Of a stretch of DNA of 64,000 nucleotides, positions 1 through 49,800 are shown one piece after another; position 1 is the stretch's first letter; each line of letters begins with the position of its first letter. The notes beneath the pieces are model-generated. The model was not told where the DNA came from and did no database searches. It was given only the letters and a program-made list of their open reading frames with translations. Source of the DNA: Antedon mediterranea (Eukaryota > Animalia > Echinodermata); contig NC_092680.1 in NCBI RefSeq assembly GCF_964355755.1, positions 12,533,045-12,597,044 on the forward strand. The letters run 5' to 3'. The translations under genes were made by a program, and so were the position numbers.

Positions 1-901
1 CAATCTCTTCCTCACATTTTTTAAACAATGTATCGGCTGCTCCTTTATCAAGAAGTTGAAGGTAATCACAGTCTAAATTTTCCCCTATTATCTTTTGCAC
101 CGATAACTTATCAGGGGGTAGCAATTGATGTTCTGAATTGAATAAACGTCCTCCATTATCGCTTTTGTCAACAGTAGCCGCATTATCATTACTAACCTCC
201 TCAATCATCTTTTGTATTTCACAGTGTTTTTCAATTATCTTGAACCACTGACTCTTTGGAAGGTTTACACCTTTTTTACCGGGTTTAAACTTGCCTCCTT
301 CTTCAGACTGGTAATAGCGGCGAATACACACAAATTGTTCTTCTTTCCAGTTACTAACTACCACATGAATTATGTCCGAAAGTGGGATTCTTACTGCCTC
401 CACCATGTTAATGTCTCTTTGTAAGTCTTCCAGTGCCTGAATAATTAAATCAATATTGTTGAAAAGTTTTTGCCACAGCAGAACGGGTAAATTAATACCT
501 AGAGGTCCAGGTTTGAAGGCACCATATTCTTCCGTTTGGTAATACTCTCTGAGACAAACATAAACATCGTCACCCCATCGTTGGGCCACTACATGGCGTT
601 TTTTAGACAAGAAAATCCGATTCTTTGAAGTTATGGAAATCTTTGGTACACCATCGGTCATTACGGCAAAATCTCGGGCGCTCATTCCTAAGGCTTTACT
701 CAAACCTTTACACTCATCTGTTTGACCGTTAAAAGATTTTATAGAATCCATTATATTCGCTGATGTAGAAGCCATCGTTGGTAATTTTAAACTGCTACAC
801 TCGTCAGTTTGACCATTAGAACTCCCCATAACTCTTTTCATAGTCCTACGGGCTTTCTCACCAATTGCCAATTTCGGAGTAGGTAAACAGTTGAAACTCA
901 T
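1..901 (-). CDS. Tandem PC4 (Sub1/p15-like ssDNA-binding) domains fused to the N-terminal part of an ALKBH2-like 2OG-Fe(II) dioxygenase; 3'-truncated by the window edge (300 aa visible)
   Basis: Stop-free frame from ATG 901 to the edge. PC4-1: IFLSKKRHVVAQRWGDDVYVCLREYYQTEEYGAFKPGPLGINLPVLLWQKL. PC4-2: IPLSDIIHVVVSNWKEEQFVCIRRYYQSEEGGKFKPGKKGVNLPKSQWFKI. It ends IIGENLDCDYLQLLDKGAADTLFKKCEEEI, matching recalled ALKBH2 IRAEGLDCSYTVLFGKAEADEIFQELEKEV. Confidence 0.85.
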   Translation of the reverse strand, partial: MSFNCLPTPKLAIGEKARRTMKRVMGSSNGQTDECSSLKLPTMASTSANIMDSIKSFNGQTDECKGLSKALGMSARDFAVMTDGVPKISITSKNRIFLSKKRHVVAQRWGDDVYVCLREYYQTEEYGAFKPGPLGINLPVLLWQKLFNNIDLIIQALEDLQRDINMVEAVRIPLSDIIHVVVSNWKEEQFVCIRRYYQSEEGGKFKPGKKGVNLPKSQWFKIIEKHCEIQKMIEEVSNDNAATVDKSDNGGRLFNSEHQLLPPDKLSVQKIIGENLDCDYLQLLDKGAADTLFKKCEEEI

Positions 902-1063: not shown

Positions 1064-1618
1064 TTAAATATCCTCGCACAACAGCTTAAAAATAGCCTCT
1101 GAATTAATCAGGGTATTGACAAGAAAATAAACGAAATGTCTATACCGAGGCAATGAATATTCTCCTTGCATATTTAGTTCGTTGTAAACGGTATCGACTG
1201 AAACATACTTCTTATCCAGAACCTCCCGATAAAAATAGTCAATCTGTTCTTCTAGAGACTTCATACAACAGAAATCATGATCTTTTTGACTGCTCCTGTC
1301 AAATTCACAACCATAACAAGCCGCTTTACTTAAAACCCAACACTTGGCTAACACTTGAGCAGCAAACAATTGTTTAACCAAACGCTCCATTTTCAACAAA
1401 AATTCTCTCTCCACCTCGTCCACGTACGTAAATATACAACTTGTAGGCCTGTTACTCCTCTCGACTCCTTCATCTATACCGGCGGGGATAACCTCTTCGG
1501 CCGCCGTGTAACGATCATCTATATCACTGCCTGGAACAACAACAGTATCCTCATCATCGCTAATTATTATAACAGTATCTACACAACTCCCTTGCGAAAA
1601 ATATATACTTCCAGACAT
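1064..1618 (-). CDS. Hypothetical 184-aa protein with acidic N-terminus and a CxGCx5SQx2Hx2C putative zinc-binding motif (Polinton accessory-like)
   Basis: Intronless ORF from the track with motif CYGCEFDRSSQKDHDFCC. Co-oriented with and 162 bp upstream of the PC4-AlkB ORF, next to the terminal repeat array. Confidence 0.7.
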   Translation of the reverse strand: MSGSIYFSQGSCVDTVIIISDDEDTVVVPGSDIDDRYTAAEEVIPAGIDEGVERSNRPTSCIFTYVDEVEREFLLKMERLVKQLFAAQVLAKCWVLSKAACYGCEFDRSSQKDHDFCCMKSLEEQIDYFYREVLDKKYVSVDTVYNELNMQGEYSLPRYRHFVYFLVNTLINSEAIFKLLCEDI

Positions 1619-1788
1619 AATGAAATACTGTAAAGAGATACTCTACGCAAAGATAGGCAAAACAACTGGAAAATAGTACAGCAATAGCCGCTTCACTTTG
1701 TTTCACCGTCTTAAATCGTAAATAAAGTAATGACGTCACTCACCACGTACCAGAACATCGCGCCAAAAATTAATAAATAAGAGACAAA

Positions 1789-2342
1789 GAAACACCTGGC
1801 GGAAATTACATATCTATTGCGAAACTACCAGGAAATACACCAAGGCCAACTTTGGGCTGAAGTACCAGGAAATGAACGACCTTCATTAGAAACATCTGGT
1901 GGAAATTATATAACTATTACGTAACTACCAGGAAATACACCAAGGCCAACCTTGGGCTGAAGTACCAGGAAATGAACGACCTTCATTAGAAACACCTGGC
2001 GGAAATTATATAACTATTACGTAACTACCAGGAAATACACCAAGGCCAACCTTGGGCTGAAGTACCAGGAAATGAACGACCTTCATTAGAAACATCTGGT
2101 GGAAATTATATAACTATTACGTAACTACCAGGAAATACACCAAGGCCAACCTTGGGCTGAAGTACCAGGAAATGAACGACCTTCATTAGAAACACCTGGC
2201 GGAAATTATATAACTATTACGTAACTACCAGGAAATACACCAAGGCCAACCTTGGGCTGAAGTACCAGGAAATGAACGACCTTCATTAGAAACACCTGGC
2301 GGATATTACGTAATCAGGAAATACACCAAGGTCGGGTCTGAA
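1789..2342. repeat. 100-bp tandem repeat (~5.5 copies) in the subterminal region
   Basis: AACA(C/T)CTGG(C/T) recurs at 1791, 1891, 1991, 2091, 2191 and 2291. Each unit holds the hairpin CCAAGG-CCAA-CCTTGG and two ACCAGGAAAT motifs. Confidence 0.97.
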
Positions 2343-2521
2343 GTATCACTATTACTACTGGCAATGGTAAAGAATAGGCCGTGCTGAGTAACGATTCGTT
2401 GATTTTGGTGTTGCTGTGTTAGGCCTTTTTTGTGAACTAATTTAGCCTGTTAGTAAATAACTGTCTGTAAAAGTGAATGTACACTAGTTTGTTAATAAAT
2501 ATGTATTATAAAATAGTTTAC

Positions 2522-2900: not shown

Positions 2901-5730
2901 ATGGTGGCTGACGAGCGAGGTCTTTATGGAAAGAGTGTTGACAAAGTGCGAGGCAGCGAGGCACGCGCGGCATGCCAAATATTTGTGCGAGGCATCATTT
3001 TATCATTTCCAAAAGTGCGAGGCATGCGAGGCATATAGTTTACAATTTCAAAAAGGTGCGAGGCATATCTTAACGTGCTATTATGCTATATTATAGGCCT
3101 AATAATCAATCGATACAAGGGTATCTAAATAGATTCGTGTATACACTCATCATGTTGTTTATTTTTATGTAACGATTGTTTTTTCATTCAAGTCATATCG
3201 TGTCAAATTTTACTTTTACAAAAGTGCCCAAACTACGGTTCAAAAATCTGAACGACAGTCTTCAACTTTCGATAAACAATAATTGTATAGCGACACACTC
3301 ATCAAATGACTGCAATGTTTGTTGGCATTTCGAGCGTGTTTACTCACATGTCTCTCGAACATAGCAGAGTGAAAATAATATTTTGTCACACCCCTGCGCC
3401 TAGATCCGGTAGACCCGAGAGATGGAAAATCCCTCTTTACTATTTAGCAGGTAGCGGAATGATTCAGCCCCCCTCAGCTCAGAGGATTGTGGTGCATTCC
3501 CCTCCTATAGCACGTGGTTTCAGCAGCAACGCACAGACTTCTCTCTGAGCGGCGTGCCAAAGACATTTTTGACATTCCATTCTCTAGGAACAACACGTGT
3601 ACCTCTCTCGCAAATAAGGTGAACAGCGATTGCCAGGACAAGTTCAATAACTGGCGGTGAATAAAAGGTAACTGATATGCCGATCCAATAACATGCCGCA
3701 AAGAAAAAAATTGCGACAGAATTCTGGAGCGCGTGTGAAAAAAGACTTACGTCCGACAATTGTAATACTAGGCCTAAAATTAAACTTTAGCTAATATGCT
3801 TAGCCCTAACCTAGATAAGAGGCCTATGTAGAAAATAATTTAATCAATTTTGATAAAATAATAATTAGTGTAATATTTAATAATGATACACTATTCCTGT
3901 TTTAGTAAGCTAGGTAGGCTATATTACGAACGATTTTTATTTATTGTTGTCCATGTACGTACTAATAAACCTGGCGCTAGTTTCCTTCGCTTGTATTTTT
4001 ACTCCAAATTTGATAACTAACTTTATCGTGTGAATACCACACCTTAGAAGTATACCTCATGAGTACTTTAATGAAAGAATCACATAAAAAGTAACAAATA
4101 AATCCTTAAATTAATGATTTTACAGGCGTGTTTCTCGCACACTGTTCGCGAATTTCACTTATTCAATGTTCAATATTTTTGTTTCTATGGAGCGCCAAAA
4201 GAGCAACGATAATAGAGGACTAAAACTCAGTGGAATGCGTCAATTTCTCATGCATTTATTGGTGAAAAACACGTTTTATTTCAATATATTTGTTAATTTG
4301 TCAATAAAAATGTTGTAATATGTTACTGCTGATACTGTTCTGTTTTCAAAGAATAATAATCGATCCTAAATCAACATCACTACCTAGTCTAGACCTAGGA
4401 CATCCTACTAAGGATATTATGATGAATTTTTCTATTTTATTCTTTAAAAGGTTAACGAAACCGTGTACATTATCAACAGTAACATTTTTCCTTACTGACA
4501 GTGACAAAATCTATTGAAATTGTACTTGATTTTCACCAAATAATGCGTTAAATATAAATGGATTCCACAGAGTTTTTAGCCCTCTAATTAATTTTGCTCT
4601 TTTGGCGTTCCATAGAAACCAAAATATTGAACATTGAGTGTGCGAAATGCGAGAAAAACAACGTCTGTAAAATCACCAATTTAATGGATTTATTGTTACT
4701 TTTATGTGATTTTTCTTCATTAAAGTAGGCCTACTAATTCTAAGCTGTGGTATTCAGGATAAAGCCTTGGTTAAAATACAAGGCAGGTGCAAAAGGAAAC
4801 TAGCCTAGCGGGCCTAGGCCTAGGCTACTTCAATTTCGGTGATTTCCTGCCTTGCAATTTTGAGAAATGATAAAATGATGCCTCGCATTTTTTGATGATG
4901 GTAAAACGATGCCTCGCATAAATTTCTGACTTGCCTCGCATGCCTTCCCTGCCTCGCGTGCCTCGCACTTTGTTACTACCCTTATGGAAATACTTTGTCA
5001 TTACCCTTCTTGTCTTTACGATAAGGGAAGTAAGTCATACACAGACAGAAACATAAGGATTAATGCATGAAGACAATAATTTCAGACAAACATAACATCT
5101 GTGTAGAAGAATGCCAGAAAAACTAGGCCTAAAACGCGTCAGAGATCAATTTGTAAAGTGAGTTGGCAAGCCTTCTATTCTATTTCTAGCCTACCTAGGC
5201 CTAGCTTTAGGCCATACTATCGCCTAGCTAGGCCTACCTAGGCTAGGCTACATATACCCTAGTAGGCTAGGCCATGCCAAGTAGTACTTATAGGCCTACA
5301 TAATACTTACTAATCCCTACTAGTACTAGTCTACTATGTGCTAGGCCAGGCCTAGCCTAGGCCTAGGTTAAGCCTACTACTAAATATGATGAGTACAGTA
5401 CTAGGCTAGGCCTAGGCTACTTATTATTATTAATTAATATTTATAGGCCTAATATTTAGTTGATTTAGTGTTGTAAGGCTAGGATAGGCCTAGTGGTAAT
5501 ATTAATACATAAATACTGTTGTTTTTGTTTCTTTTAGGTCAATTAGATGAACATTGATAAATGGGACCCTTCAGGCTATTACCTGCGTTACAAACTCCAC
5601 CAATGACCAAGCTAGTAGTTTAAGCGGCCAGTATATTATTGCCATGGAATTAAGAGCAATTGCTCCTCAAAAACGTGGACTGGCAATTATGAGGCTGATA
5701 CAGGTTTGTATAGACTTTTTTCAAATGGGT
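2901..5730 (+). pseudogene. Decayed MADF (Myb/SANT-like) gene of a probable PIF/Harbinger element, split by a MULE-type MITE
   Basis: Joining across the 2933-4981 insertion gives EVFMEILCHYPSCLYDKGSKSYTDRNIRINA*...ISDKHNICVEECQKN*...RVRDQFV (MADF pattern with stops and frameshifts). A BESS-like GQYIIAMELRAIAPQKRGLAIMRLIQV lies near 5630-5710. A Harbinger-like end ...GGTGTGCACCGGCCT|TAA is at ~7171. Confidence 0.55.
2933..4981. mobile_element. Non-autonomous MULE/MuDR-type DNA transposon containing an internal fold-back MITE (~3976-4803)
   Basis: 9-bp TSD TTATGGAAA (2924-2932 and 4982-4990). TIRs GAGTGTTGACAAAGTGCGAGGCA / GGGTAGTAACAAAGTGCGAGGCA, with subterminal TGCGAGGCA repeats at both ends. 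Confidence 0.85.
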
Positions 5731-28800: not shown

Positions 28801-31800
28801 GATTTGATGATAAGACATTTTTCGAGTGAAATCCCGATAGCTGAGTTTTATTGAGTAAGCTTGCAGGAATAACTGTAGGCTATCTTCCTGTGTCCCGTTA
28901 GGACCGAGATGTCTGCCCATGTTGCAAGCCGTACCATAATGTCTTCTTTCTTGGGCCCACTCTGTCACGGCAGTTAGTTTCAAAAGATGATTAAATTAAA
29001 TAATGTATTAATAATTATTAGGATGGTATTCATTTGAATAAACGCCTCTCTAATAAAACATCACTTTGAATAATAACCCCCCCCCCCAACCCAACTATCT
29101 AATAAACGTCCATCCACATACTTATAACAACACAATTATACGGTACTATTTGTAGTAGAATTCACCGCACTGTTATCTATTTACCAAGCATTTGTTATTC
29201 TTTTAGCACTTTTCATATCTATTAGAGGTTTTCATTTGATTATAAATGTTACCATATTATTAAAACTACAAAATTTAACATATATCCCTCGAATAAGCAC
29301 CTCCCTCAAATGACTTCCGCCTCCCCAAAGCAGGCCCATATGCAGCATTTCTAATGGGGGGGTGCGAGCGAAGCAAGCAAAAATGGCTGGGGGCCAGGGG
29401 GCCGCCAAGGGCCCCCGGTCAGGGGCCGAAGGCCCTGGAAAAATTTGCGTTATTTGACGTTCTAAAGACTGATTTAAGACTCTCTGTTGTGGCTTGGGCT
29501 AGTTGAACGATGGACACCAGAACTTAACGCTTTCATGATGAGGCCAACTCAGACAGCGTCGTACGACGCTGTCTGAGTTGGCCTTCTCTTGTTTAGGCGC
29601 CGTATTCGATAGTGTCTGTATTTCCAGACACGTCTTTACCGCCGGTTAAAGTTGTCTGTATTTCCAGCAAACACTTTACCGCATACCGCGTACATGAAGC
29701 GCTAAGCTATTGCTTGTCGTCACATGATCGACTGCGCATGTTTTACATCGAGTTTGTAGTCAGTTCAGATTCCGTAATTTAATTACCGGTATTTTTTCAT
29801 TTTATATTAGCATATTTTTGTTTGTATACCATTGATAATGTAAATTTTGTATATATATAATGATATTGTCTTTAGTTAAACAAGACAAGAAAAAATACCA
29901 ACCGAGGAAATAGTGGACCTTTTGGGACTTGGGGGGGGGGGGTGCGTCTGCACCCAACGCACCCCCCCTGGATACGGGCCTGCAAAGGGCCCTACCAAAC
30001 AATAAAAACTGTACTTTAAAATGTTATTAATCATCTAAAACACTGTGAAACAAAGTAGTTTAGTTTTACGAATGTCAAGCATTTTTAATAATGGTAACCG
30101 ACAGAAAACGTATAAGGAGAACATTATCATTCCGAAAACCACGAGCTCACCCTCTAGTATTATTAATCCAGGTATTCTGTATTGAATTGGTTTTTTTTAA
30201 CGGGCCTTGAGCACTCTTTGTGTGGTATAGTTACAATTATTAGTTACAATTTGCGATAATTGATTGAAATGATGAGTCTTTGAAATTGAACATTATATAA
30301 ATAAATGAACATCAGGTACATACAAATAATAATTGAGTAATGTATTTTTTGTAGATTTGCATAACGAAAATGATTAGGATGTCAACTTTTGTTTAATCGT
30401 TACCTGGAATCATGTCGCAGACATGGTCCTGTGACCCACGAACATATCCCCCATTACGTTCCGTTACTGTCGCTTTGCATGTCACGTTTTTATTACGCAC
30501 TACACATCTCAAAGTCACTGTTGCACGGGTTCGGTCGACCTTTTTGGTGTACTGATAACCGATGCTATCAGCCAACGTGTCCTATAAAAACAGTAATTGA
30601 GAAAATGAATTGTTAAATAACAAAACACGATAAATAAATGCACTTAACCGAATCTGTAAATATATATTAATTAAGTAATTTGTGGCGATAATGTAATTGA
30701 ATTAGGTCATCTCTGTACAAATTTAACAGATCCAAAACATAAAAACAGTAATTGAGTATAATTTGTTGTTAAATAAAACACGATAAATAAATGCACTTAA
30801 CCGAATCTGTAAATATATATTAATTAAGTAATTTAATAATAATGTAATTGAATTAGGTCATCTCTGTAAAAATTTAACAGATCCAAAACATAAAAACAGT
30901 AATTGAGTATAATTTGTTGTTAAATAAAACACGAAACGCAAAAAAATAATTAATTCAAATACCTTGCCCCGGTTAGAGGTTCCTGGAAGAACTCTGTAGG
31001 TCACTTCATCCTCTGGAGCTACCACAGGATTAGCAACCGGATATGGGTCTGGTAGATCATCTTCGACAAATTCGTCGGGTTCAGCGAAATTTCCCAAATT
31101 CTCCGCAAAAACATCGTGAGCTTGTTTGTTATTGCCGGCCAACATACAATCACCACAAGACCAATCCATGTATCCATTCTCAATACCTCGCCGGTATTCC
31201 TCCTGGGATATTCCCGTACCACACGTCCTGTGCTGCCAGCGTTCGCATTCTTCGCAAAATATTGCCTCTTGGCGTTGAATTTCAAGTTGATGACATTCTA
31301 AGCATTCGTTCATGTTGTTCGGTAGATCAAAAAATTAAAAGTGGTGTTTTACTAATATTTTTGGTTCATTTTATAGTTGTCATCGCGGTTAAAATGTACA
31401 CGCAAAGGCACGCGTACGCTACTTTCTATTAACAAGAGCTGCATTGTTTTATCTCCGAAAAGGCGTCGGTACGCATCGTCTTTGAGGAATCTGTGTATTG
31501 GTTTTTTTTAGCGTCTTGATTTGATTTGCACAATGCCCTCTTAAACAAAGACGAAAAACAAACAATTAATTTAATTTGTTTTATTAAACATTTTCGAACC
31601 ACATTATTATCACTTTAATAATTCTTCGTTTCTTGGGCCTACAAATTTACATTTGAAATCCCGCACATTAAATACGTATATGCCTACATTCCCATTCGTT
31701 TCTTATATCTATCTTAAACCTTACTCTCATTGGCAATTTAATTAATTTAATTATAACTTTAGTAATTCCTCATTTCTTTTTTGTTATACCGTAATAGTAG

Positions 31801-34800
31801 TAGTAAATAACGATTATTTTATTTACTATTTATATAATTAACTATTAAATTTTATTTACAATACCAATCGAATGAATCTTGTTAATAAATTATATATTAT
31901 AGGCCTTATAGGTACTAATTCGTTTATAAGAAATAATAAGGGTCCAAGGACCGACCCCTGTGGTACACCACATGGAACGTTCTTTGCCGATGATTTACAG
32001 TTACCAATCTGTACATATTGTTTACGATTACTAAGATAACTAATAAACCATTTTAACGAAACACCTCTAATGCCATAACGTAACAGTTTTGAAAGTAAAA
32101 TATCATGATTCACAACATCAAAAGCTTTGACTCCCTTACACCTTCTGTTCTTAAAAAAGTTACTCCTTTTATTTTAATTCCTTTTATAGACAGGTTCCAT
32201 TTCTCAAAAAACGGCCTAGAAAACGAATCAAGAAGCATTTTTGGGTAGAAGCTGGGATCCACTTGATTTAGGATATTTTGACCTCGCTGATTACGAATAT
32301 GGCGGATCCCAAGCGAAATTCGGCCATCTTAGCCCTTAATTTGCATAATTAAAAATGGCGGCCATTTTTTATAATTACCTTATATCTCGAGAACCACTAG
32401 TCACAGATAATTAATTTTGGTCTCAAAATGTTTTAAATATATGTTTTTATATTCACTTTAATGACACATTTTCTCAAAAAATGGATGCAAGTCTTATTTC
32501 TGACATTTTGACCTTTGACCTTGATTTATCGTATCTCAGTAACCAATAATCGGAGAGACACGAAATAGGGCTCAAATTGTTCAGAAACTATACATTCATA
32601 TTTATTATAATGAAATGTTTTTACAAAAAATGGCCGATTCTACAACTATTGACCTTTGAACTATTAGTCAAATATAATAATATAACTTTGAAAATTGTGG
32701 TCTTATGAATTTTTTTTTCTTTTTAAATTGTTTAAAACATGTGTGTTTCTATCCAGTTTAATGGCACATTTTGTACAAGAATGGCCGATAGTATGGTTAT
32801 TGACCTTTAAACTATAGCATAGGCCTACTGTATACTAAATATAATATAATTGCATAACTATGAAATTATTTATACACAATAATTAGTAAAATTATAAAAT
32901 TCACTGCCATCAAATATTATGTGTTATGATTTATATAGATTTAAAAAAAAATTTGAACCCGCAAGTTACATTTGTTGAAATTTGAAATTTGAAATTACCT
33001 GCCATCAATATGATGGAGTATGATTATAGATTTTTTTAAATGTGAACATGTCAGCTACATTTGGAAATTACCTGCCATCAATATGATGGATTATGATTAT
33101 AGATTTAAAAAAGAATTTGAACACGTAAGCTACATTTGAAAATTACCTGCCATCAATATGATGGATTATGATTATAGATTTAAAATAGAATTTGAACACA
33201 TCAGCTACATTTGGAAATTTGGAAATTACCTGCCATCAATATGATGGATTATGATTGTATAGAGGCCTACCTGCCATCAATATGATGGATTATGATTATA
33301 GATTTAAAAAAGAATTTGAACACGTACTAAGCTACATTTGAAAATTACCTGCCATCAATATGATGGATTATGATTGTATAGATTTAAAAGAAAATGTGAA
33401 CACGTAAGCTACATTTGGAATGAACATGTTAAGGGCATCAGTTTAAGATAATTCATGCAAAGGTTTCCGTCATCTTTAGCGTTGTTACAGCGGCATAAAG
33501 CTGTACATGGTAGTTTTGACTTCTTGCACCTACATCTATTGTCTTGCATCCACAATAAATCATCTCTAACGAAGCAGTAGGAATAGCTTCATTTTTCAGA
33601 AGCACTGGTTGAAGTTTACCATTAGATAGCTCCCACCCAAAATCTGTTGGTGATGGCAAATGCTGGATTGGCGATACAGCTTTTTTCCACCATACGAGTG
33701 CTTGGGAGTGTGCTCTTTTTATATGTTGGTGCACTGCATCGCTTGTTGGAGGTAATGCCTCTGGTTTTGTTTGTTTTTTTAAAGCCTAACTTCATTGGTA
33801 CTTTTAACTTGACAAACACCGTAAACGTAGCAAATGAATCTTTCCGATTTCATAATAACTTGGTCACTGATAGGTTTTCTCCCAGGTCTTTAATTAGTTC
33901 ATAATTTTTTTGAATACTTCCCATGCCGATGCCTTTGAGTGACCACTTAGATATGAACAGGGAAGAGTTAAATTACTGTATGTATGTATTAATGTAATTT
34001 AACTCTTCCCTGGATATGAGATAGTATCGCATCCACTAATAGTGTGGAATGGAATCAGTGCTTTTGCATAACCCTCGGGCAAGGCTTCAAAAATGTGTTT
34101 TATAGATACTTTCTTTTTTTTGGATGTCCCTGTCATCATCCATTTGGATACCATTCTTTGGTAGTGAGACACTAGAATCAATAGTACGTCTGTATCCCTA
34201 GAAGCAACTACAACTGTGTCGTATCGGACATTGGCAGCATGACAAGTCTCGTGTCCGATTCTTCATGATCTGCGACCAGAGACAACGTATTCGTGTAGAC
34301 TTTTGATGATTTAACAACTAATTCTTTCATAAATCCACCAGCTGTGACAATTTCTTTGTCTATAGGAGCTTGACGAATCAACTCCTCTGATAGAAATCGT
34401 GCCAGATCTGCTTTATTATCTTGTAATGCCAAAAAGTTTGACCAGCAATTTGGCAGCGGTATTTCACCACTTTCTATAATTCGACGAATTGGTCTCTGTG
34501 TTTTGGTTCATCTTTGTCTAGTGGTACCCTTTATCGACAGTTTTAAGTTAGGCATGCCATGTTAAAAAAAAAAAACCCCGAGGCATTACCTCCAACAAGC
34601 GATGCAGTGCACCAACATATAAAAAGAGCACACTTCCAAGCACTCGTCTGGAAAAAAGCTGTATCGCCAATCCAGCATTTTGCCATCACCAACAGATTTT
34701 GGGTGGGAGCTATCTAATGGTAAACTTCAACCAGTGCTTATGAAAAATTAAGCTATTCCTACTGCTTCGTTAGAGATGATTTATTGTGGATGCAAGACAC

Positions 34801-37800
34801 GATGCATAACCAATAGATGTAGGTGCAAGAAGTCAAAACTACCATGTACAGCTTTATGCCGCTGTAACAACGCTAAAGATGACGGAAACCTTTGCATGAA
34901 TGATCTTAAACTGATGCCCTTAACATGTTCATTCCAAATGTAGCTTATGTGTTCACATTTTCTTTTAAATCTATACAATCATAATCCATCATATTGATGG
35001 CAGGTAATTTTCAAATGTAGCTTAGTACGTGTTCAAATTCTTTTTTAAATCTATAATCATAATCCATCATATTGATGGCAGGTAGGCCTACTATACAATC
35101 ATAATCCATCATATTGATGGCAGGTAATTTCCAAATTTCCAAATGTAGCTGATGTGTTCAAATTCTTTTTTAAATCTATAATCATAATCCATCATATTGA
35201 TGGCAGGTAATTTTCAAATGTAGCTTACGTGTTCAAATTCTTTTTTAAGTCTATAATCATAATCCATCATATTGATGGCAGGTAATTTCCAAATGTAGCT
35301 GACATGTTCAAATTCTTTTTTAAATCTATTATCATAATCCATCATATTGATGGCAGGTAATTTCCAAATGTAGCTGACATGTTCACATTTAACAAAATCT
35401 ATAATCATACTCCATCATATTGATGGCAGGTAATTTCAAATTTCAAATTTCAACAAATGTAACTTGCGTGTTCAAATTTTTTTTAAATCTATATAAATCA
35501 TAACACATAATATTTGATGGCAGGGAATTTTATAATTTTACTAATTATTTAATTGTGTATAAATAATTTCATAGTTATGCAATTATATTATATTTAGTAT
35601 ACAGTAGGCCTATGCTATAGTTTAAAGGTCAATAACCATACTATCGGCCATTCTTGTACAAAATGTGCCATTAGACTGGATAGAAACACACATGTTTTAA
35701 ACAATTTAAAAAGAAAAAAAAATTCAAAAGACCACAATTTTCAAAGTTATATTATCATATTTGACTAATAGTTCAAAGGTCAATAGTTGTAGAATCGGCC
35801 ATTTTTTGTAAAACATTTCATTATAATAAATATGAATGTATAGTTTCTGAACAATTTGAGCCCTACTTCGTGTCTCTCCGATTATTGGTTACTGAGATAC
35901 GATAAATCAAGGTCAAAGGTCAAAATGTCAGAAATAAGACTTGCATCTATTTTTTGAGAAAATGTGTCATTAAAGTGAATATAAAAACATATATTTAAAA
36001 CATTTTGAGACCAAAATTAATTATCTGTGACTAGTGGTTCTCGAGATATAGGGTAATTATAAAAAATGGCCGCCATTTTTAATTATGCAAATTAAGGGCT
36101 TAGATGGCCGAATTTCGCTTGGGATCCGCCATATTCGTAATCAGCGAGGTCGAAATATCCTAAATCAAGTGGATCCCAGCTTCTACCCAAAAATGCTTCT
36201 TACACCATATTTCAGAGGAAATAGAACTTGTCTATTACTTATGTTATCAATTTATCTTTTACTACAGGAATCGTACCTGATCATATAAAATTAGCTAAAG
36301 TGGTCCCAGTTTTTAAAAAGGGAAATGCAAACTTACTTAACAATTATAGACCGATTTCCGTTCTCTCCATTCTCTCAAAAAATAATAGAAAAATTAATGC
36401 ATACTCGTCTTTATACATATTTAACTAAACATAACATCCTAAATAATCATCAATATGGTTTTCGTAAAAAACACTCTACCTGTCACGCTATGCTTGAACT
36501 TATCTATATATAAATTTACGTAAGGGCAAAATTCGGTAAATCGCGCCTTACTTCTAGAATTTTTACTCGATGGTATATAAAGTTGGTTCGTACTTTCGGT
36601 ACTGATTTTAACCACCTGATGTAACCCTGTTTACTAATTAAATTGAGTTAGATAATTAGTTATTGACGATTAAAACGAATTTAGGTTCAAAGATTTGCCC
36701 CAAATAGGGGTGTTTTCCGATCGTGGTATACACTGTCTAATGGATGTCCAACTTGAAAAATACCCGCACACAATAATACGAGGACGCTTCGCATTTTCCT
36801 ATCTCCTCCTACGATAATTGTTTTTAATAGCTGAAAACCGGTTGAACTGCTCGAGTACAGCATCATAATGTTGAAGACAGGCCGATTTTCTTTAAAAAAT
36901 ACTATTTTGATAGATTTAATTTACGTTTTTACAAATGTATTGATTTGCGATGAATGGAACATTCCAATCTCTCAGTCTGCCAGTTTGGTTTAACACAAGT
37001 AGGTAAATTTATGAGCCCTTGGAGAATAAACTTGCAATACTTTGACAATACAGTACTGCAAATACCTATTAACCATTTTTGAATACAAACATTTCTTACT
37101 GTGAATACTGTTAGATGTAAAAAAATATATACAAATAAACTTTATTACTGTGATTATGGGTAGGCTCTACTGTTAGATATATACACACGTAATATACAAA
37201 TAAACTTTATTACTGACAGTTGCTTCTCAACGTTTGCATTAATTAATAATTACAAAAAATATAAACGTCGTAGTGGTGTATCGTTACATGTACTTTACTA
37301 TTTCAATCGACTATGACAGTGACAGTTTTAACAAAGTATTAAATCGCAAATGTTTTACTATATTTAGTCACCGTTAGTGGTATATTATTTATAGGCCTAT
37401 GAAAAATGAAAACAAAATTTCGTTACTGACGTGGATAAAGAATATATTTAAAAATTGTTCTTCTTTGTACCTATCCTCTTTCCCATCCCTCAACCCTAAT
37501 TGGGTTTCTTTAAATGAATAAACAATTTGGACTCATTTTGTGGTAAGTTTCTCTTTCGGAAGTAATTCCCAGGGTGCTAATTTTGTTTGACTACATAAAT
37601 CATTGTGTCTACTTATTCGTTTCTGTAAACGACAATGTATTATAGTGCTGCGGTACGTGCATTTGAAATCGCCAGATTTTTTACCCTGAAATTACTGTGT
37701 ATTCGAGAACCATCTGTGGGCACGACCTAGATGGTACGCGAGCGAAGCAAGCGTACCATCTAGTACATTCAATTAATAATGCATTTGAAAATAAAGAATT

Positions 37801-40800
37801 TTTGTTAAGCACTTTTCTTGATCTATCCAAAGCTTTTGATGTTGTTAATCATGATATTTTACTTTCAAAACTGTTACGTTATGGCATTAGAGGTGTTTCG
37901 TTAAAATGGTTTATTAGTTGTCTTAGTAATCGTAAACAATATGTACAGATTGGTAACTGTAAATCATCGGCAAAGAACGTTCCATGTGGTGTACCACAGG
38001 GGTCGGTCCTTGGACCCTTATTATTTCTTATTTACGTAAATGACATAACCTTTGTTAGTGATACACTGAATATTGTTTCCTTTGCCGATGATACAACTTT
38101 ATTTTATTCAAACAAAAATATTGATTTATTAGTAAATACCTTTAATTTAGAATTAAATAAGATTGAAAATTGGTTCTCTTCTAATAAATTATTGATTAAT
38201 ACTTCAAAAACAAATTTTATTATATTTCACTCCCATCGAAACAGGCATAAATTAAGTAACAAAAACATTCAAGTTGTTCTAAATGGTAAAAATCTGGACC
38301 GAAAAAGTGAAACTTTATTTCTTGTAATTTTAATTAATGAAAACTTAAATTGGACCGGTCATCAGAAAAATATTTCAATCAAAATGTCTAAATGCATTGG
38401 TGTTATAAACCAGATAAAATATTTTTTTCCTCAACACATTTTACTTTCTTTGTATAATTCGCTTATATTACCACATTTACTTTATTGCAATATTATATGG
38501 GCAGCTGATTATCCTTCAAATATATGACCTTCATAAACTTCAAGTTACTTCTTTTATGTTTGAATATGTTACTGGTTTACTACCAAAGTCTGTTTCAATG
38601 TTATTTTCAAATCGTTTATTAGATCATACCTATAACATAAGAAATCCACATAAATTGTATGTTCCATTTGTTAAACTTAGAAAAAGCCAGTTTTTTATTA
38701 CTTATTTAGGACCAACGTATTGGAATAGTCTAGATTCAACTGCCATAAATCATTTATATACTGTAAATTCATTTAGAAAGCATATAAAAACCCTTTATTT
38801 ATCTTGTTACCAAACCTACTAAATATGTTGCGCACTGTATAATTTATTTAATTGTATGCGTTGTATTTGTATATTTATATCGTTCCGTTCTTATTTTTGT
38901 TTGAATTATTATTATTATTTTAGGGGTCAATGTTAGACAAGTTCTACTTCTAATTTTGATCCCTAAGATGGTCTTATATTAATTGTTTATTATTGTTTAT
39001 TGTAATATTGTTTGTTATATATTGTGACCATCTTAAATAAATGTATTATTGAACTGAATTGAACTGAACTGTTTACAATCAATAACGTTTATATCATTAA
39101 AGTTTCATTATCACTTGCGTAATTCTTTCTAATTCCTTTCTTTAGACATACAAAATTATTTGTACACATTAAATAAGTATAGGCCTAAGTACTAATTTAA
39201 ATTCGTTTCTTATATTTATATATTTATTTTTCATTAAGGAATGTTACATATTAATGCATGGATTACAAGTTACTATATATAGGCCTATAACGTTTATTAT
39301 ATCATTAACGTTTCTTATCACTTAGACAAATTACACTTTGCTGTATACATACATATAAATTGAGATCCAGCCACTGATACCCACAGCATTGTCATTTTTT
39401 CAGTAATTTGCCTTTGGATTTATATTATTTATCTTAAACTTTACTGGCAGGGAGGTATAACAATAATATGGAAGGAGCTAATTTTGTATGCGTTTGTTAT
39501 CGAAATGTGTAGTATGGAATACACAAAATAAAATTTTATTAAGGCTGTTTCAGTGTGCGGTTACATTAAAAATTGTACTCATTTTCGGGGTACTGTAGGC
39601 GCGCCTATGTTACAGCCACCACGCGTCGATACGTTCGTATTCGTAGACTACACTACTGACTGCACTCTGGCCACCGCCGCCGTGGCGACATCGGCCGTGG
39701 CGACATCGAACTGTCATCGTTTTGCTAACGAATCTGCTTAACAGTGCTTACCAATACCAGTAAAATACTGCTTTTTTCCATTATTAAATTAACTATTTTG
39801 AACTAAAAACATTTAAATAGCTAAAATCTAGTCTTATTCTTAGGCCATGGCCAGGTTTATAATACACACAGACCTAGCTAGGCCTAGCCCTGATTAAGTT
39901 TTCTTCCAAGCCTAACGTCGTGGGCCTAAGGAGGCTTAAAAGATAGCCTGATAATATTTGCGTAGCCTATAATTTTCGTTGTTAAACAAATATAGGGGGC
40001 ACAATTGATGGAAAATAACTATGTTTAAGTCTTGTAAATGAAAATCTGTCAATCAAAACATAACACACCCAACAATTCGAAGGGAGATAAACAACTTATC
40101 AGCTCTTATCGGGTGTGAAGTGTGCCTGTATCGGAGCTTCCTGGCAACATATATTTGGTGATTTCCCTAATCTACAAAAAGACTTCGACGCGGTAGCGCG
40201 TTTGTGTCGAAACTGTCGAACTTTTTTCCAGCGGGTAGTATCATTTACCCCGACACATTATATTTATCATAAACTTTAGTATCATTTACGTAACTCCTAG
40301 TTTATTCTTGTATAATTATAATAAAATATAAATAGCCCTCAAATATGTAATTGGTATTTTCATTTCAAATTCACTGTATAGTGATTATTAATTGCAACAT
40401 TTGTAGTTTGTCCGTGTTGAGTTGTTCCGTGTTGTTTTCCTGTGTAAAAACAAAAAGCAAAGAGGTAAATACACAATGAAATCGATATTACTGTATTATG
40501 CTGCTGTCGCGTCATTGTTTCCCCACCAACGGCACTATGGGCGTTCAATAGCTATTGTCGTATTATTGTCTGTGGCCGAAATTGTCTGTGGCCAAAGTGG
40601 ATCTAATCCATTCTAGTCTAGAGGCATTGAGGTATAAAATATGTTATTTTAGTGTGATACCGTTAATTGAAGAAAAATCAACTCGTAAAGAATTGTTTAT
40701 GAATGTTAATTTATCTGTTTATATTATTTTATTTTTAGTGTGATACCATTGAAGGAAAATCAACTTAATGATCAGGGTAAATAAATAAGTAAATAAATTT

Positions 40801-43800
40801 TAAATTTGGATACAAATAATAAATGTTTATGAGTCAAATATAAAAACATTCATTATTCTCATATTATAAATAATACTGTATAACTATAAATTTAAATTTT
40901 TGTCATTTGATTGAAGAGTTGGAAAATTGATGATATGCATACAAATTTGCTCTTGCATAACATAGTCAGGTTCCATTTCTCAAAAAACGGCCTAGAAAAC
41001 GAATCAAGAAGCATTTTTGGGTAGAAGCTGGGATCCACTTGATTTAGGATATTTCGACCTCGCTGATTACGAATATGGCGGATCCCAAGCGAAATTCGGC
41101 CATCTAAGCCCTTAATTTGCATAATTAAAAATGGCGGCCATTTTTTATAATTACCCTATATCTCGAGAACCACTAGTCACAGATAATTAATTTTGGTGTC
41201 AAAATGTTTTAAATATATGTTTTTATATTCACTTTAATGACACATTTTCTCAAAAAATTGATGCAAGTCTTATTTCTGACATTTTGACCTTTGACCTTGA
41301 TTTATCGTATCTCAGTAACCAATAATCGGAGAGACACGAAATAGGGCTCAAATTGTTCAGAAACTATACATTCATATTTATTATAATGAAATGTTTTTAC
41401 AAAAAATGGCCGATTCTACAACTATTGACCTTTGAACTATTAGTCAAATATAATAATATAATAATAATATAACTTTGAAAATTGTGGTCTTATGAATTTT
41501 TGTTTCTTTTTAAATTGTTTAAAACATGTGTGTTTCTATCCAGTCTAATTGCATATTTTGTAAAAGAATGGCCGATAGTATGGTTATTGACCTTTTAACT
41601 ACAGCATAGGCCTACTGTATACTAAATATAATATAATTGCATAACTATGAAATTATTTATACACAATAATAATTAGTAAAATTATAAAATTCACTGCCAT
41701 CAAATATGATGTGTTATGATTTATATAGATTTAAAAAAAAATTTGAATACGCAAGTTACATTTGTTGAAATTTGAAATTACCTGCCATCAATATGATGGA
41801 GTATGATTATAGATTTTCTAAAATGTGAACATGTCAGCTACATTTGGAAATTACCTGCCATCAATATAATGGATTATGATTATAGATTTAAAAAAGAATT
41901 TGAACACGTAAGCTACATTTGAAAATTACCTGCCATCAATATGATGGATTATGATTATAGATTTAAAAAAGAATTTGAACACGTCTCAGCTACATTTGGA
42001 AATTACCCGCCATCAATATGATGGATTATGATTGTATAGTACCTGCCATCAATATGATGGATTATGATTATAGATTTAAAAAAGAATTTGAACACGTAAG
42101 CTACATTTGAAAATTACCTGCCATCAATATGATGGATTATGATTGTATAGATTTAAAAGAAAATGTGAACACGTAAGCTACATTTGGAATGAACATGTTA
42201 AGGGCATCAGTTAAGATCATTCATGCAAAGGTTTCCGTCATCTTTAGCGTTGTTACAGCGGCATAAAGCTGTACATGGTAGTTTTGACTTCTTGCACCTA
42301 TCTATTGGTTATGCATCGTGTCTTGCATCCACAATAAATCATCTCTAACGAAGCAGTAGGAATAGCTTCATTTTTCAGAAGCACTGGTTGAAGTTTACCA
42401 TTAGATAGCTCCCAACCAATATGTTGGTGATGGCAAATGCTGGATTGGCGATATAGCTTTTTTCCATACGAGTGCTTGGAAGTGTGCTCTTTTTATATGT
42501 TGGTGCACTGCATCGCTTGTTGGAGGTAATGCCTCTGGGTTTTTTTAAAAGCCTAACTTCATTGGTACTTTTAACTTGACCAACACCGTAAACGTAGCAA
42601 ATGAATCTTTCCGATTTCATAATAACTTGGTCACTGACAGGTTTTCTCCCAGGTCTTTAATTAGTTCATACTTTTTTTTTAATACTTCCCATGCCGATGC
42701 CTTTGAGTGACCACTTAGATATGAGCAGTGAAGAGTTAAATTACTATATGTATGTATGTATTAATGTAATTTAACTCTTCCCTGGATATGAGTAGTATGG
42801 CATCCACTAATAGTGTGGAATGGAATCAGTGCTTTTGTAGAACCCTCGGGCAAGGCTTGAAAAATATCTTTTATAGATACTTTCTTTTTTTGGATGTCCC
42901 TGTCATCATCCATTTGGATACCATGCTTTGGTAGTGAGACACTAGAATCACTAGTACGTCTGTATCCCTAGAAGCAACTACAACTGTGTCGTATCGGACA
43001 TTGGCAGCATGACAAGTCTCGTGTCCGATTCTTCATGGTCTGCTACCAGAGACAACGTATTCGTGTAGACTTTTGATGATTTAACAACTGATTCTTTCAT
43101 AAATCCACCAGCTGTGACAATTTCTTTGTCTATAGGAGCTTGACGAATCAACTCCTCTGATAGAAATCGTGTCAGATCTGCATTATTATCTTGTAATGCC
43201 AAAAAGTTTGACCAGCAATTTGGCAGCGGTATTTCACCACTTTCTATAATTCGACGAATTGGTCTCTGTGTTTTGGTTCATCTTTGTCTGGTGGTGTCCT
43301 TTATCGACAGTTTTAAGTTAGGCATGCCATGTTAAAAAAAAAAAAACCAGAGCCATTACCTCCAACAAGCGATGCAGTGCACCAGCATATAAAAAGAGCA
43401 CACTTCCAAGCACTCGTATTGAAAAAAGCTGTATCGCCAATCCAGCATTTGCCATCACCAACAGATTTTGGGGGGGAGCTATCTAATGGTAAACTTCAAC
43501 CAGTGCTTCTGAAAAATGAAGCTATTCCTACTACTTCGTTTTAGATGATTTATTGTGGATGCAAGACACGATGCATAACCATATAGATGTAGGTGCAAAA
43601 ATTCAAAACTACCATGTACAGCTTTATGCTACTGTAACAACGCTAAAGATGACGGAAACCTTTGCATGAATGATCAAAACTGAAGCCCTTAACATGTTCA
43701 TTCCAAATGTAGCTTACGTGTTCACTTTTCTTTCAAACCTATAGGCCTACAATCATAATCCATCATATTGATGGCAGGTAATTTACAAATTTCCAAATGT

Positions 43801-46800
43801 AGCTGACGTGTTCAAATTATTTTTTAATTCTATAATCATAATCCATCATATTGATGGCAGGTTCTATACAATCATAATCCATCATATTGATGGCAGGTAA
43901 TTTCCAAATTTCCAAATGTAGCTGACGTGTTCAAATTCTTTTTAAAATCTATAATCATAATCCATCATATTGATGGCAGGTAATTTTCAAATGTAGCTTA
44001 TGTGTTCAAATTCTTTTTTAAATCTTTAATCATAATCCATCATATTGATGGCAGGTAATTTCCAAATGTAGCTGACATGTTCACATTTTTAAAAATCTAT
44101 AATCATACTCCATCATATTGATGGCAGGTAATTTCAAATTTCAAATTTCAACAAATGTAACTTGCGTGTTCAATTTTTTTTTTTTAATCTATATAAATCA
44201 TAACACATCATATTTGATACTCCTTCACCTGTAGTTAAGATACTGATGTCATGGTATAGGAATCAGGAATTTGTTGTCAGGTGGGGAAGTTCCGTTTCCG
44301 ATTCTTTCAATGTTCGTAATGGGGTTCGCCAGGGAGGCGTTATGTTCCCTCTACTTTACAATGTGTACACTGATCCGTTAACTGTTGAACTGACTAAGTC
44401 AAAAGAAGGTTGTGAAATTAACAGTCTTAAACTGAATTGCCTAAGCTTTGCCGGTGACTTGGTCCTTTTGGCTCCGTCAGTGACTGGCTTACAAAGCCTA
44501 ATTGGACTCTGTGAAGGTTTTGCTAGTGACCATGATATTACTTTTAATGAAACCAAATCCAAATGCTTGCTATTTTGCCCGAAAGTCTGCAACCTCAAAG
44601 GTGTTCCACATATTACCTTAAATGGGGCACCTCTAATCGTTGATAATTCAATAACCTATGTTACCATGATATTCCGAAATAAAAAGATAAATGAATGAAT
44701 TGTGTATAAATAATTTCATAGTTATGCAATTATATTATATTCAGTACGGTATACAGTAGGCCTATGCTGTAGTTTAAAGGTCAATAACCATACTATCGGC
44801 CATTCTTGTACAAAATGTGCCATTAGACTGAATAGAAACACACATGTTTTAAACAATTTAAAAAGAAAAAAAAATTCATAAGACCACAATTTTCAAAGTT
44901 ATATTATTATTATATTATTATATTTGACTAATAGTTCAAAGGTCAATAGTTGTAGAATCGGCCATTTTTTGTAAAAACATTTCATTATAATAAATAAGAA
45001 TGTATAGTTTCTGAACAATTTGAGCCCTATTTCGTGTCTCTCCGATTATTGGTTACTGAGATACGATAAATCAAGGTCAAAGGTCAAAATGTCAGAAATA
45101 AGACTTGCATCCATTTTTTGAGAAAATGTGTCATTGAAGTGAATATAAAAACATATATTTAAAACATTTTGACACCAAAATTAATTATCTGTGACTAGTG
45201 GTTCTCGAGATATAGGGTAATTATAAAAAATGGCCGCCATTTTTAATTATGCAAATTAAGGGCTTAGATGGCCGAATTTCGCTTGGGATCCGCCATATTC
45301 GTAATCAGCGAGGTCGAAATATCCTAAATCAAGTGGATCCCAGCTTCTACCCAAAAATGCTTCTTACATCATATTTCAGAGGAAATAGAACTTGTCTAAA
45401 CAATGCACTATTGATGGTGCATAGAAAATTTATTGAATAACATGTGACCCAATATCCTTCAACCAAATGACAAGGAACTGAGAATATGTTTATATAACAG
45501 TACTAAAAGGTTTGTTATTCTTCATTCAGAAGCATATGTTTATTTTTGTACCGTTCAGTTGTAAAAAAACACTTTATTTGCTAATTAATTCAGTGAATGA
45601 CTTAAATGTAAGTGATGCGGAGGAAGAGCCCTTTGACAGTGAAGATGATGACGATATGTGGCAGTGGCAGGGACAGACTGCTGGTAAGTCATAAATTGTT
45701 TTCAGTTTTTGTCTCACTATGTTCAAACCTGGAAGTATGCTTACCGTAAATTAGTGTTGAAAGTTGTTAAAATTAATTAACCAAAACTTTTGTTACAAAG
45801 TGAAATGTCACAGATCGGAATGCATGAGTAATTTCATTTCTTTTGAATTCAAAATCATCGTGTCATAAGCGTTGTATACTGATAGTCCATGGGCCAGACA
45901 TTTTTTCGGTATCAAATTGGTGGCAAATGCTACCATACATTTTTGGAAAGCTTAATATGTCTACTTTTCAGAAATCCATGATAGCAATGCCAATTGTACA
46001 GCTTAATAGTCATTTTTGAGGATTATATAACACCGCCTACGGAAAATATGCACCACAAAATTTTGGGGTAGGGGGTAACACTTTTGCTAATAACTCAGGA
46101 TTTAATGAACAGATTTGCATTTTCTTGGTATCAATATGTATTGTATAGACAGCTTAAGTGTAATATATTTTTCTAAGAAAATCCAACAATTATTGACGCC
46201 ATTAGAGGTCAGAAGGTCATTGAACTTTAATAAAAAATGATTTTTTGTCTAATATTAACGTATAACTTTCAGTTTTTAACAAAAAAAATACAATAGATGT
46301 TATGCAAACTGAAGTTTTCATGAACATATAGACCCAATAAACAAGAAAATTGAAGTTAAAGATTAACAAAATATGAATATGCTGTGTATTATGAAGAAAT
46401 TTGTTGTTTTTAGTAATTTGTAATCGTTTACAATTATGGGGTAGGGGGTAACATTTTTGCGAATAACTTACAATTTAGTTAACAGATTTGCATTTTCTTG
46501 CTATCAATATGTAGTGTATAGATTGCCTAATTGTAATATACTTTTTAAAAATGAATCCCGCATTTGTTGACATCTTTAGAGGTCAAAAGGTCACTGACCT
46601 TTAATAAAAAATGCAATTTCTTCTAAATTAGCTTATAAATTTCAATTTTAAACACAAAAAACAGGAAATCTTATGCAAACTAATGTTTTCTTAAACCTAT
46701 AGACACAATAAATAAGAAAATTGAATTTAACATTTTTTCTAAATTGAATATGCTGTGCATTATAAAGAAACTTGTTCGTCATTAGTAATTTGTGACAATT

Positions 46801-49800
46801 ATGGGGTAGGGGGTAACGTTTTTGCAAATAACTTAAGATTTAGTGAACAGATTTACATTTTCATGTTATCATTATGTAGTGTATGGATTTCATTATTGTA
46901 ATATATTTTTTTTAAATGAATCCAGCATCTATTGACGTCTTTAGGTCAAAAGGTCAATGACCTTCAATAAAAAATGCAATTTTTTCTAAATTAACTTATA
47001 CATTTCAATTTTAAACACAAACTTACAAAAGATCTTATGTTGATGTTTTCCTAAACATATAGACACAATGAATAAGAAAATTGAAATTAAACAAACAAAT
47101 ATTCTATGAATTTATGAAGAAATTTTGTCCGTTACTAATAATTTGTTATTAACAATTATAGGGTAAGGGGCAACATTTTTTCTAATAACTTTGTATTTAG
47201 TGATCAAATTTGCATTTTTTTGTATTAATAATGTACTGTGTAGGTTGCCTAATTGTTATATTCATGTTGAAAAAATAAAACGTAACATATTGACATCATT
47301 GTAGGTCAAAGGATCATTGAACATTAACAAAAAATACAATTTCGTCCAAATTTAACATTAATAAAGTTTCAATTTTAAACACAAAAATACAACAAATCTA
47401 TTACAAACTGGTGTTTTTTTTTAAACCTATAAAGACAATGTACAAATACAAATTAAAGTTAAAGATTAAACACAAATAAACATGTATAGGCCCTAACAAT
47501 ATGAAGAATTTTGACCGTATTAGTAATTTGTAATCCTTAAAAATTATGGGGTAAGGGATAACATTTTCGCTAATAACTTTGAATTTATTGAACATATTTT
47601 GCATTTCTTGGTAACAATAAGTAGGGTACTGTATAAACTGTTTAATCAAAAATTGTTATATTCAAAAATTATGCAACATTTTGATCTCAAATAATAGTGG
47701 TTGTGTAGTTTTATTTAAAGCCTGTAGACAAAATTTTAGTATTTAGTGTTGTTGTGGGGTACACAATGCACACATTATGCATGACTTGTTGGAGGGTATA
47801 AATTATTGAAAAAAAAATTAATGATTTTGTTTTAATATGAGGATAGGAGTTTTATAAAAACATATATTTCATCGTGAAATTACAGGGTGGATAAACTATT
47901 TTATAATTTATCGTGATTATAAACTAAGTCTCACTTAAGGCTTAAGGAGTGGAGTTGAAAGAGTCGTGAGTTACAAGCCTGGCACTAGGTCAGGATTGAA
48001 CCACGGAACTTGGGATTGGAAGGCAAGCATGTTAACCACCAAGCTACAGCTCCACTACTTTAGATAGGGTATTTGGTTATTTTTTAAATACATCCTACGG
48101 CTCGCTACTGTTTTTAGGCTATACTGTATAAATTGTTATTATTTTACAGATTGTACTTTAAATCAATTAATCGACTTATATAGTAATTTTAAAAATGACA
48201 CTAGGGCCTACCAATTAAATTTGTACAGTATTTAAAAGATATTCTTTTTCTATAAATGTTCATCTGACATTTTCCTGTATCTTGGTTTACAAAAATGAAC
48301 TCCGTAACAATATGTAAATGTTTCAGATCTGCATATCAGCTGCAGTTTAGCAATTCACACTTTCTCGAAAATTAATTCTATTATATTACATCGTCAAATT
48401 CCAGTAAAGCCTACATCATTTAAAACAACTGGGTATATATAGAAATCTTTAAAAGACATGATTTTGTTATCGCAAACTGAAGTATGATCTTGTGCAATGT
48501 TCCTTGACATTTTGGAATGTGATACTTTGCAAGTTTCCCGATTTTGATCAACGCTACCGTTAATATCTTTTAAAATGTTATGAAAAAGCTGACGAAAATA
48601 CTAGAACCAAGTACACTGGTACAGCACGTTATAGTCTTCAGTCTGTATTCTCTAGAGATGTGAAGGGCATCCAACAATGGATAGAAACACTATTTGGCTC
48701 AGTGGCGTCTGTGAGCAATGAGGAAAATGTAAAGTATGAAGATGTACCAGATAAGATTTTTCCTTCCTGTCTAAATTGTATTGACTGGACCTTCTCACCT
48801 AACTTTAGGTGGTTGTGTCAGAGTTATCCTCCAATATAATTGTTAATTTCCATGTCAATGTCTCTCTCGACACAATATTTTGGGTCCTTTCCAGGAGTCC
48901 AGAAAATACAAAGAAACTGAAGACCGTAACATGCTGCACCAGTGTTCTTGGTTAAAACATTGGTTAATAGATATTAATGGTAACCTTGATCAAAATGGGG
49001 AAAACTTACAACCACCTTCGACCATGCCAAGATACATGGAACATACTTTAAACTGCGATATGAAAACATAGAGATACTCAGTTCTTTCAAACGTATGTGG
49101 AAGATGTGGAACTGCAGCTAATATGGAAATCTAAAAAATTGACATATTAATGAGTTTGAATAAACTAACTGTTTTCTTTAAATCAAGATGAAGTAAAATG
49201 TAATTGTCCTGTAATATTACAATACCATAACAGTTTTGTTTAGAAAAAACTATCTCATTTGCATTTGCAAACCAGATGAACAATTATAACCTTAGAATAT
49301 CTTATCAGTTACAAATAAAAGATATAATTGGTAATCTAAACAATTTCTATGATTACTATAGACAATTGAATGTTTAGAATGTAAATTATAAAAAACAATT
49401 TACAACACAGAAGCTGGATATGTTTATTTAATATCCTCATATTTAAATTTCATTTATTTTAATTAATAATAAATCAAATAATGTATAGCTTCCAAAAAGT
49501 CATGCATTTTGTTATTTCGTACCCCATAACAATACTAAACGGTGAATTTTTTCCTATAGGTTTAATAAGTTAAAAATCACATAAATCTATTGGTAATAAC
49601 ATTTTGATAATTTTTTAATATATAGCAATTAAACAGTTTATATACTACTTATTGGTTCCTAGAAATGCAAAATATGTAGACTAAATTCAAAGTTATTACC
49701 AAAAATGTTACCCCTTACCCCATAATTTTTAATAATTACAAATTACTATTACGGTCACAATTCCTAATATTATTACACATGTTTATTTGTTTTTAATCTT

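Follow-up and report, generated by a model that had tools for sequence, protein, structure and literature searches.

A PC4-PC4-ALKBH2 fusion gene near one end of a probable Polinton-type element in the crinoid Antedon mediterranea

The fusion gene and its family

The window analysed here, a stretch of 64,000 nucleotides from the genome of the crinoid Antedon mediterranea (contig NC_092680.1, positions 12,533,045 to 12,597,044), opens with the 5′ part of a PC4-PC4-ALKBH2 fusion gene (2..901, minus strand). In the ORF scan, this frame (2-901) starts with an ATG at 901 and runs past the window edge without a stop, leaving 300 amino acids visible within a stop-to-stop span of 2-1027, and its assignment rests on the open frame, on Pfam and on an identity of 220/220 residues with the longer protein P0013. 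The N-terminal leader (aa 1-40; 782..901, minus strand) is homologous to the starts of crinoid PC4-family genes, which makes the ATG at 901 the likely true start. Pfam and alignment place PC4 domain 1 at aa 95-160 (422..619, minus strand), from RIFLS at 619 to the end of a helix at 422; it carries LREYY and KPGPLGINL, its KPG[KR]KG motif being altered to KPGPLG. PC4 domain 2 (aa 171-236; 194..391, minus strand), located by Pfam and PDB matches, carries IRRYY and KPGKKGVNL, with the canonical KPGKKG. A sequence-only reading of this DNA had proposed two tandem PC4 domains at about 619-431 and 390-200, coordinates that agree with 619-422 and 391-194, and the PC4 profile that it named (PF02229) does match two stretches of the ORF (E 5e-24, 84 bits with a cut-off of 25), whose PDB sequence matches are PC4 or MoSub1 in six cases out of six. 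The PC4 pair is followed by an acidic linker with a terminal DNG motif, common to unfused crinoid PC4 proteins according to alignment and a shuffle test (149..193, minus strand), and by the start of a host-derived ALKBH2 segment (2..148, minus strand), which aligns with Antedon, Anneissia and human ALKBH2 and is placed by a tree described below. The ALKBH2-like start IIGENLDCDY lies at 91-62 (minus strand), and the alignment puts the fusion junction near 149/148.

The continuation of the gene can be followed in P0013, a 389-aa protein that matches window aa 81-300 without a single difference over 220 residues and goes on into a complete ALKBH2 domain. The iron triad and RxxxxxR motif that the sequence-only reading had proposed to look for beyond the edge are both intact in this identical protein, as HKDDE, WYHSLP and RINLTFR (that is, HxD...H plus RxxxxxR), and a frame that stops or loses AlkB similarity past the window edge is ruled out, since P0013 continues through all motifs. 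P0013 matches human ALKBH2 structures with an E-value of 4e-72 and ALKBH3 with 7e-23, and the profile PF13532 is found in family member P0001 at E 4e-29. The proposed PC4-PC4-ALKBH2 architecture is thus borne out by Pfam and by full-length P0013; a full-length model of the fusion, built from a 7-row alignment, reached a pLDDT of only 30 and was left unused.

The fusion family consists of 17 proteins in 5 clusters, encoded as near-identical copies on 7 distinct contigs of 22-41 Mb. All named members come from Antedon mediterranea, with the source names 'uncharacterized' or 'ALKBH2-like'. The full catalytic set (HxD, distal His, two Arg) is present in 13/17 proteins (three of these 13 being short models without PC4 and one retaining a PC4 remnant only), P0003 is a PC4-only member, and 3 further models end before the complete catalytic motifs. 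An ordinary single-copy host gene is ruled out, since a host-type ALKBH2 gene exists apart (P0290/P0022). No relative of 526-2000 aa appeared among 488 candidates, which is weak evidence. When the window copy is compared with other copies, 9 of the 11 best-supported ORF differences (from 40 of 311 rows) are non-synonymous, as expected of a copy that would have been drifting since its insertion.

The element end and the rest of the window

A co-oriented intronless ORF of 184 aa with a CxGC...SQ..H..CC motif (1064..1618, minus strand) stands immediately upstream of the fusion gene. Found by the ORF scan and in variant contigs from three runs, it belongs to the same multi-copy element and shows divergent versions in other copies. 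It has no Pfam or PHROG match, and its Atlas leads reach only 0.83-0.84, under 0.9. A TGACGTCA palindrome at 1731-1738, which we take to be a CRE/ATF-type site, lies between this ORF and a subterminal tandem array of 100-bp units (1788..2308; 5.2 copies, 96% matches), and the contigs of other copies have array units of other lengths. A bacterial promoter scan was empty, its bacterial model not being apt for this host.

The element ends in ACTACT (2354..2359, plus strand), the 3′ (ACT)2 motif of Mavericks/Polintons, at a contig-defined boundary. In the accessible part of PMC8097293, (ACT)2-3′ is given as the commonest end of vertebrate Mavericks, the whole motif being 5′-(AGT)2//(ACT)2-3′. Here the Maverick terminal motif is present at one end, exactly on the boundary, while ACTACT and its complement together occur 33 times in the 64 kb. 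In four public runs, element-side contigs end at 2359/2360 and a much deeper flank repeat begins at 2360, with differing upstream DNA in 3 of the 4 runs; among the pieces listed for these runs, no contig bridges 2359/2360. The depth step and the loose ends at 2360 mark a host repeat of high copy number into which the element inserted (2360..2520), a flank outside the element, and the first 6 bases from 2360 are a candidate target-site duplication. No inverted partner of the ACTACT end was found within the 64-kb window, and no pPolB, integrase, ATPase or capsid gene in the window, which includes 2.36 kb of element. Scans of viral contigs with P0001, with the ORF at 1064-1618, with an alignment and with P0254 gave no relative; in metagenome contigs a different alignment found nothing and P0013 found one distant AlkB locus at 34% (L001). 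The copies are multiple and dispersed, with the family on 7 contigs and many variant contigs per run. The sequence-only reading had placed the gene on a Polinton-like element, in keeping with the Maverick-type end that adjoins the fusion gene, and a Polinton/Maverick is indeed the likely identity of the element.

Beyond the element, the window consists of host DNA that contains repeats, reverse-transcriptase fragments and a RIO exon. Nested MITE-like inverted-repeat elements occupy 2931-4983, with arms at about 2931-3066/4848-4983 and 4031-4213/4587-4756. Farther along are a PHD-finger ORF that is below the Pfam cut-off (30858-31313, minus strand), three reverse-transcriptase fragments (31856-32173, minus; 37667-38527, plus; 44204-44698, plus), tandem arrays with units of 75 and 365 bp, scattered in both orientations over 32987-44139 and 46059-51196, and an exon with a RIO domain, probably from a host gene (56649-56969, plus).

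Descent of the two halves

In the case of the PC4 half, the closest matches outside the fusion family belong to a crinoid PC4 family at 42-55% identity (P0135, P0168, P0169 and P0181 of Anneissia; P0006, P0159, P0161). The proteins of this crinoid type are mostly single-domain, one is tandem, and AlkB occurs in none. The leader aligns with Anneissia P0168, P0169 and P0181 with local scores of 39, 42 and 37, equalled in 2, 1 and 6 of 5000 shuffles, whereas it gives no match with the host ALKBH2 N-terminus (3070/5000 shuffles); the linker/DNG region, on its side, aligns with the tail of P0168 with a score of 36 (14/5000 shuffles). The window protein therefore combines the leader and DNG tail of the crinoid PC4 family with a following ALKBH2, which by these alignments indicates that an existing PC4 gene acquired the enzyme at its C-terminus.

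The two PC4 repeats of the fusion are 44% identical. Modelled in tandem (56-row alignment, 155 residues), they form one compact predicted unit (pLDDT 93, pTM 0.87), as the sequence-only reading had supposed when it spoke of a single-chain PC4 pseudo-dimer. Both repeats of the model align with Pur-alpha, in which the PC4-fold dimer forms within one chain (Z 11.2, rmsd 3.4, 127 aligned), its PC4 fold aligns with human PC4 (rmsd 1.1 over 65 residues), and its best viral structure match is the lancelet adintovirus protein MOSUB (E 5e-8, TMq 0.76, 20% identity). In R-x-Y-Y, both the Arg and the aromatics are kept in the PC4 domains, as judged from the PDB sequence matches. The basic positions of KPG[KR]KG are gone from domain 1, and the net charges of the two domains, +1 and +3, are weakly basic, so that one of the two putative DNA-binding sites may be degenerate. 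A PC4 domain tree of 69 columns, with 3 of its 54 branches starred, is too short to resolve origins and is compatible with a descent of the PC4 pair from crinoid PC4, separate from MOSUB.

Several other PC4 arrangements were observed. P0228, P0254, P0259 and P0275 are tandem PC4 proteins of ~200 aa ending in HxNQ...CxxCxP, and these four are possibly members of a wider MOSUB family; a search of viral contigs with P0254 found no relative. Among P0136-P0170 there are many proteins of 330-510 aa in which PC4 is repeated four times and DEK_C is often present as well; the two that bear names are green algal. In P0196 and P0206 PC4 is paired with a Z-alpha domain.

For the enzyme half, a tree was built from 39 AlkB domains chosen from the matches, all of them ALKBH2 rows and 10 of them from the fusion. 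The fusion rows form one clade (support 100/98) nested in a crinoid ALKBH2 clade (100/100), and they group with Antedon copies, leaving Anneissia outside (91/92), next to a 268-aa Antedon paralog (89/81). The claim that ALKBH2 was captured from the host is thus upheld by the tree, with the enzyme nested in crinoid host ALKBH2. The crinoid ALKBH2 sequences (P0020, P0021, P0288-P0290) sit on a long branch of 0.49. As to the paralog, P0020/P0288 are a 268-aa Antedon ALKBH2-like pair that shares a single 41-Mb contig and forms the sister group of the fusion clade; their first 30 residues align with the start of P0168 with a score of 47 (0/5000 shuffles) and with the start of Anneissia host ALKBH2 with a score of 29 (78/5000), and this pair may be a second element-borne form, made of leader and ALKBH2 without PC4.

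The sequence-only reading had also supposed that PC4 re-targeted the enzyme to single-stranded DNA, a claim that finds no counterpart in the enzyme itself. The F1 hairpin of the fusion stays hydrophobic, with V-Y-G (Y stands in that column in 39/112 other ALKBH2), which rules out a switch to an ALKBH3-like, acidic hairpin for ssDNA; in the accessible part of PMC2965238, a hydrophobic hairpin confers dsDNA repair, and human ABH2 is already active on both ssDNA and dsDNA. An APIM-like PCNA motif is present in horse and urchin and absent in the three crinoid host-type ALKBH2 copies tested. Its loss is therefore not a fusion event. A near-C-terminal Arg, found in 111/112 other ALKBH2, is missing from the fusion and from 5 crinoid host-type rows.

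The mode of capture can be approached through the host gene, whose two ALKBH2 isoforms differ by one 12-aa piece. Two fusion-family models, P0017 and P0016, follow the common sequence until 1 and 2 residues, respectively, beyond its two ends, then diverge and stop after short tails. The simplest reading of these break points is read-through into retained introns, so that the host introns flanking a small exon are probably retained in the AlkB half, just outside the window, which in turn would imply capture as genomic DNA. The earlier description of the gene as intronless consequently stands for the 900 visible bases, and probably fails beyond the edge, where the protein models point to introns.

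A repair enzyme for the element, and the alternatives

Polintons are thought to replicate through long single-stranded intermediates, and metazoan ALKBH2 is an Fe(II)/2-oxoglutarate-dependent demethylase of 1meA and 3meC in DNA. The reading that we favour, with a probability of about 0.55, is that a Polinton gene joining a PC4 pair to host ALKBH2 repairs the element's own unwound DNA. The process would start, within the Antedon lineage, with the capture of a genomic, intron-bearing ALKBH2 fragment into an existing PC4 gene of the element, giving an in-frame fusion near the element end with its catalytic motifs intact. The PC4 pair, whose predicted fold is that of a single DNA-binding unit in one chain, would then hold the enzyme on unwound or displaced DNA of the element, where the tethered enzyme would remove 1-methyladenine and 3-methylcytosine. 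The dsDNA-competent hairpin is kept and human ABH2 acts on ssDNA as well as dsDNA, for which reason PC4 is better read as a tether that would most likely raise the local concentration of the enzyme than as a switch of its catalytic specificity.

A first alternative, improbable yet the best placed of those considered, is that a genomic piece of ALKBH2 fell by chance in frame with the PC4 gene of the element and is carried as a useless passenger, as in Pack-type capture. Host introns, if retained, would imply precisely such a capture at the DNA level, which the tree shows to be recent, and the apparently neutral drift of the window copy, the PC4-only P0003 and the three more of the 17 models without complete catalytic motifs would all fit an enzyme half without use. 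However, AlkB is the most conserved part of the protein between two subfamilies (98% identity between P0013 and P0018, as compared to 84% for the PC4 part and 62% for the linker). The stem leading to the fusion rows amounts to 0.11 changes per column and their clade is 17% diverged from its nearest paralog, yet all catalytic motifs were kept, and most of the clade-specific domain residues are of types also found in other ALKBH2. The conservation of AlkB and this motif-retaining stem favour an enzyme that would be functional and under selection, though the 98% identity between subfamilies could alternatively come from a recent exchange of cassettes.

It is still less likely that the gene belongs to a non-Polinton mobile unit or to segmental duplications, or that it is a domesticated host gene for repair or transcription. 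No Polinton core gene lies within the window, the AlkB half is likely to hold introns, and the source names of the members are those of a host ALKBH2-like or uncharacterized protein, all of which would suit such an origin. Against it stand the Maverick end motif exactly on the insertion boundary, the subterminal tandem array together with the interrupted high-copy repeat, the near-identical copies on 7 large contigs and the predicted MOSUB-like fold.

The least probable reading, by a small step, is that an animal Polinton took host ALKBH2 as a spliced genomic fragment onto its own PC4 protein as an eraser against host methylation, the fusion stripping 3-methylcytosine made by DNMTs, or weakly oxidising 5mC, on element copies so that these stay intact or expressed: ALKB2 is reported to repair DNMT-caused 3-methylcytosine and to be lost together with DNMTs (PMC7343188, accessible part), ABH2 oxidises 5mC inefficiently (PMC10377887, accessible part), the fusion enzyme keeps a dsDNA-type hairpin and PC4 is also a transcriptional co-activator in its Pfam description, but the element shows no CpG depletion relative to its flank (observed/expected 0.88 vs 0.88) and the host retains its own ALKBH2.

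Known relatives and biological meaning

Returning to the favoured reading of a PC4-tethered repair enzyme, its AlkB part and its PC4 part are each of known kinds. Tandem PC4 is already annotated on adintoviruses as MOSUB (lancelet Branchiostoma, UniProt A0A5H3CIS2), which like the fusion has two PC4-fold repeats per chain; its label adjoins 'ITR' in the map text of the accessible supplement of PMC8502044, just as the fusion gene lies near an element end. Unlike the fusion, MOSUB is ~200 aa long, lacks an enzyme domain and shares only 20% identity. Since tandem PC4 is thus a known adintovirus gene, the more likely order is that an element gene gained a repair domain. As regards the function of MOSUB, the name has 0 occurrences in the accessible main text of PMC8502044, and it is absent from the main texts among the matches listed in the literature search.

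The enzyme resembles metazoan ALKBH2 in keeping HxD...H, RxxxxxR and the hydrophobic F1 hairpin, with E 4e-72 to human structures, and differs in being multi-copy and element-borne and in having its host N-terminal extension swapped for leader + PC4 + PC4. On the other hand, the predicted PC4 fold and two-repeat arrangement recall the PC4/Sub1 homodimer and repeats I-II of Pur-alpha, whereas the fusion, unlike the homodimer, is single-chain and asymmetric, with one degenerate basic motif and an enzyme attached. AlkB domains also occur in the replicases of plant RNA viruses. In the accessible part of PMC10598087, PF13532 is reported in giant viruses (Marseille-, Mimi- and Phycodnaviridae). Unlike these viral forms, the fusion has as its donor the ALKBH2 of the animal host itself, acquired recently and joined to PC4 in an integrating element.

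The sequence-only reading knew of no description of this architecture, and none of the searches made contradicts it. In a library of 1.84 billion, AlkB is present in 0/146 other PC4 matches (best 150 of 206); among the best 120 of 527 ALKBH2 matches, PC4 is found in 3 rows, all of the fusion family, and in none outside it; and in the Atlas P0013 led to clusters that have AlkB alone, with scores below 0.9. The literature searched, outside which most subscription papers fall, holds no description of a Polinton, Maverick or adintovirus with AlkB, ALKBH2 or a PC4 fusion, nor of a repair enzyme ascribed to Polintons; ALKB is not in PMC11244446, and neither AlkB nor PC4 in PMC11131425. The union of PC4 and ALKBH2 on an animal Polinton-type element therefore appears to be undescribed and, among the sequences searched, confined to one crinoid lineage.

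If the favoured reading is true, the gene would represent a capture that is both recent and traceable, with its donor lineage, its junction and its unfused relatives all visible. It would offer a defined protein with which to ask whether a virus-like transposon is limited by alkylation damage or by damage from host methyltransferases, and it would open a first way into the function of the PC4-type gene labelled MOSUB in adintoviruses.
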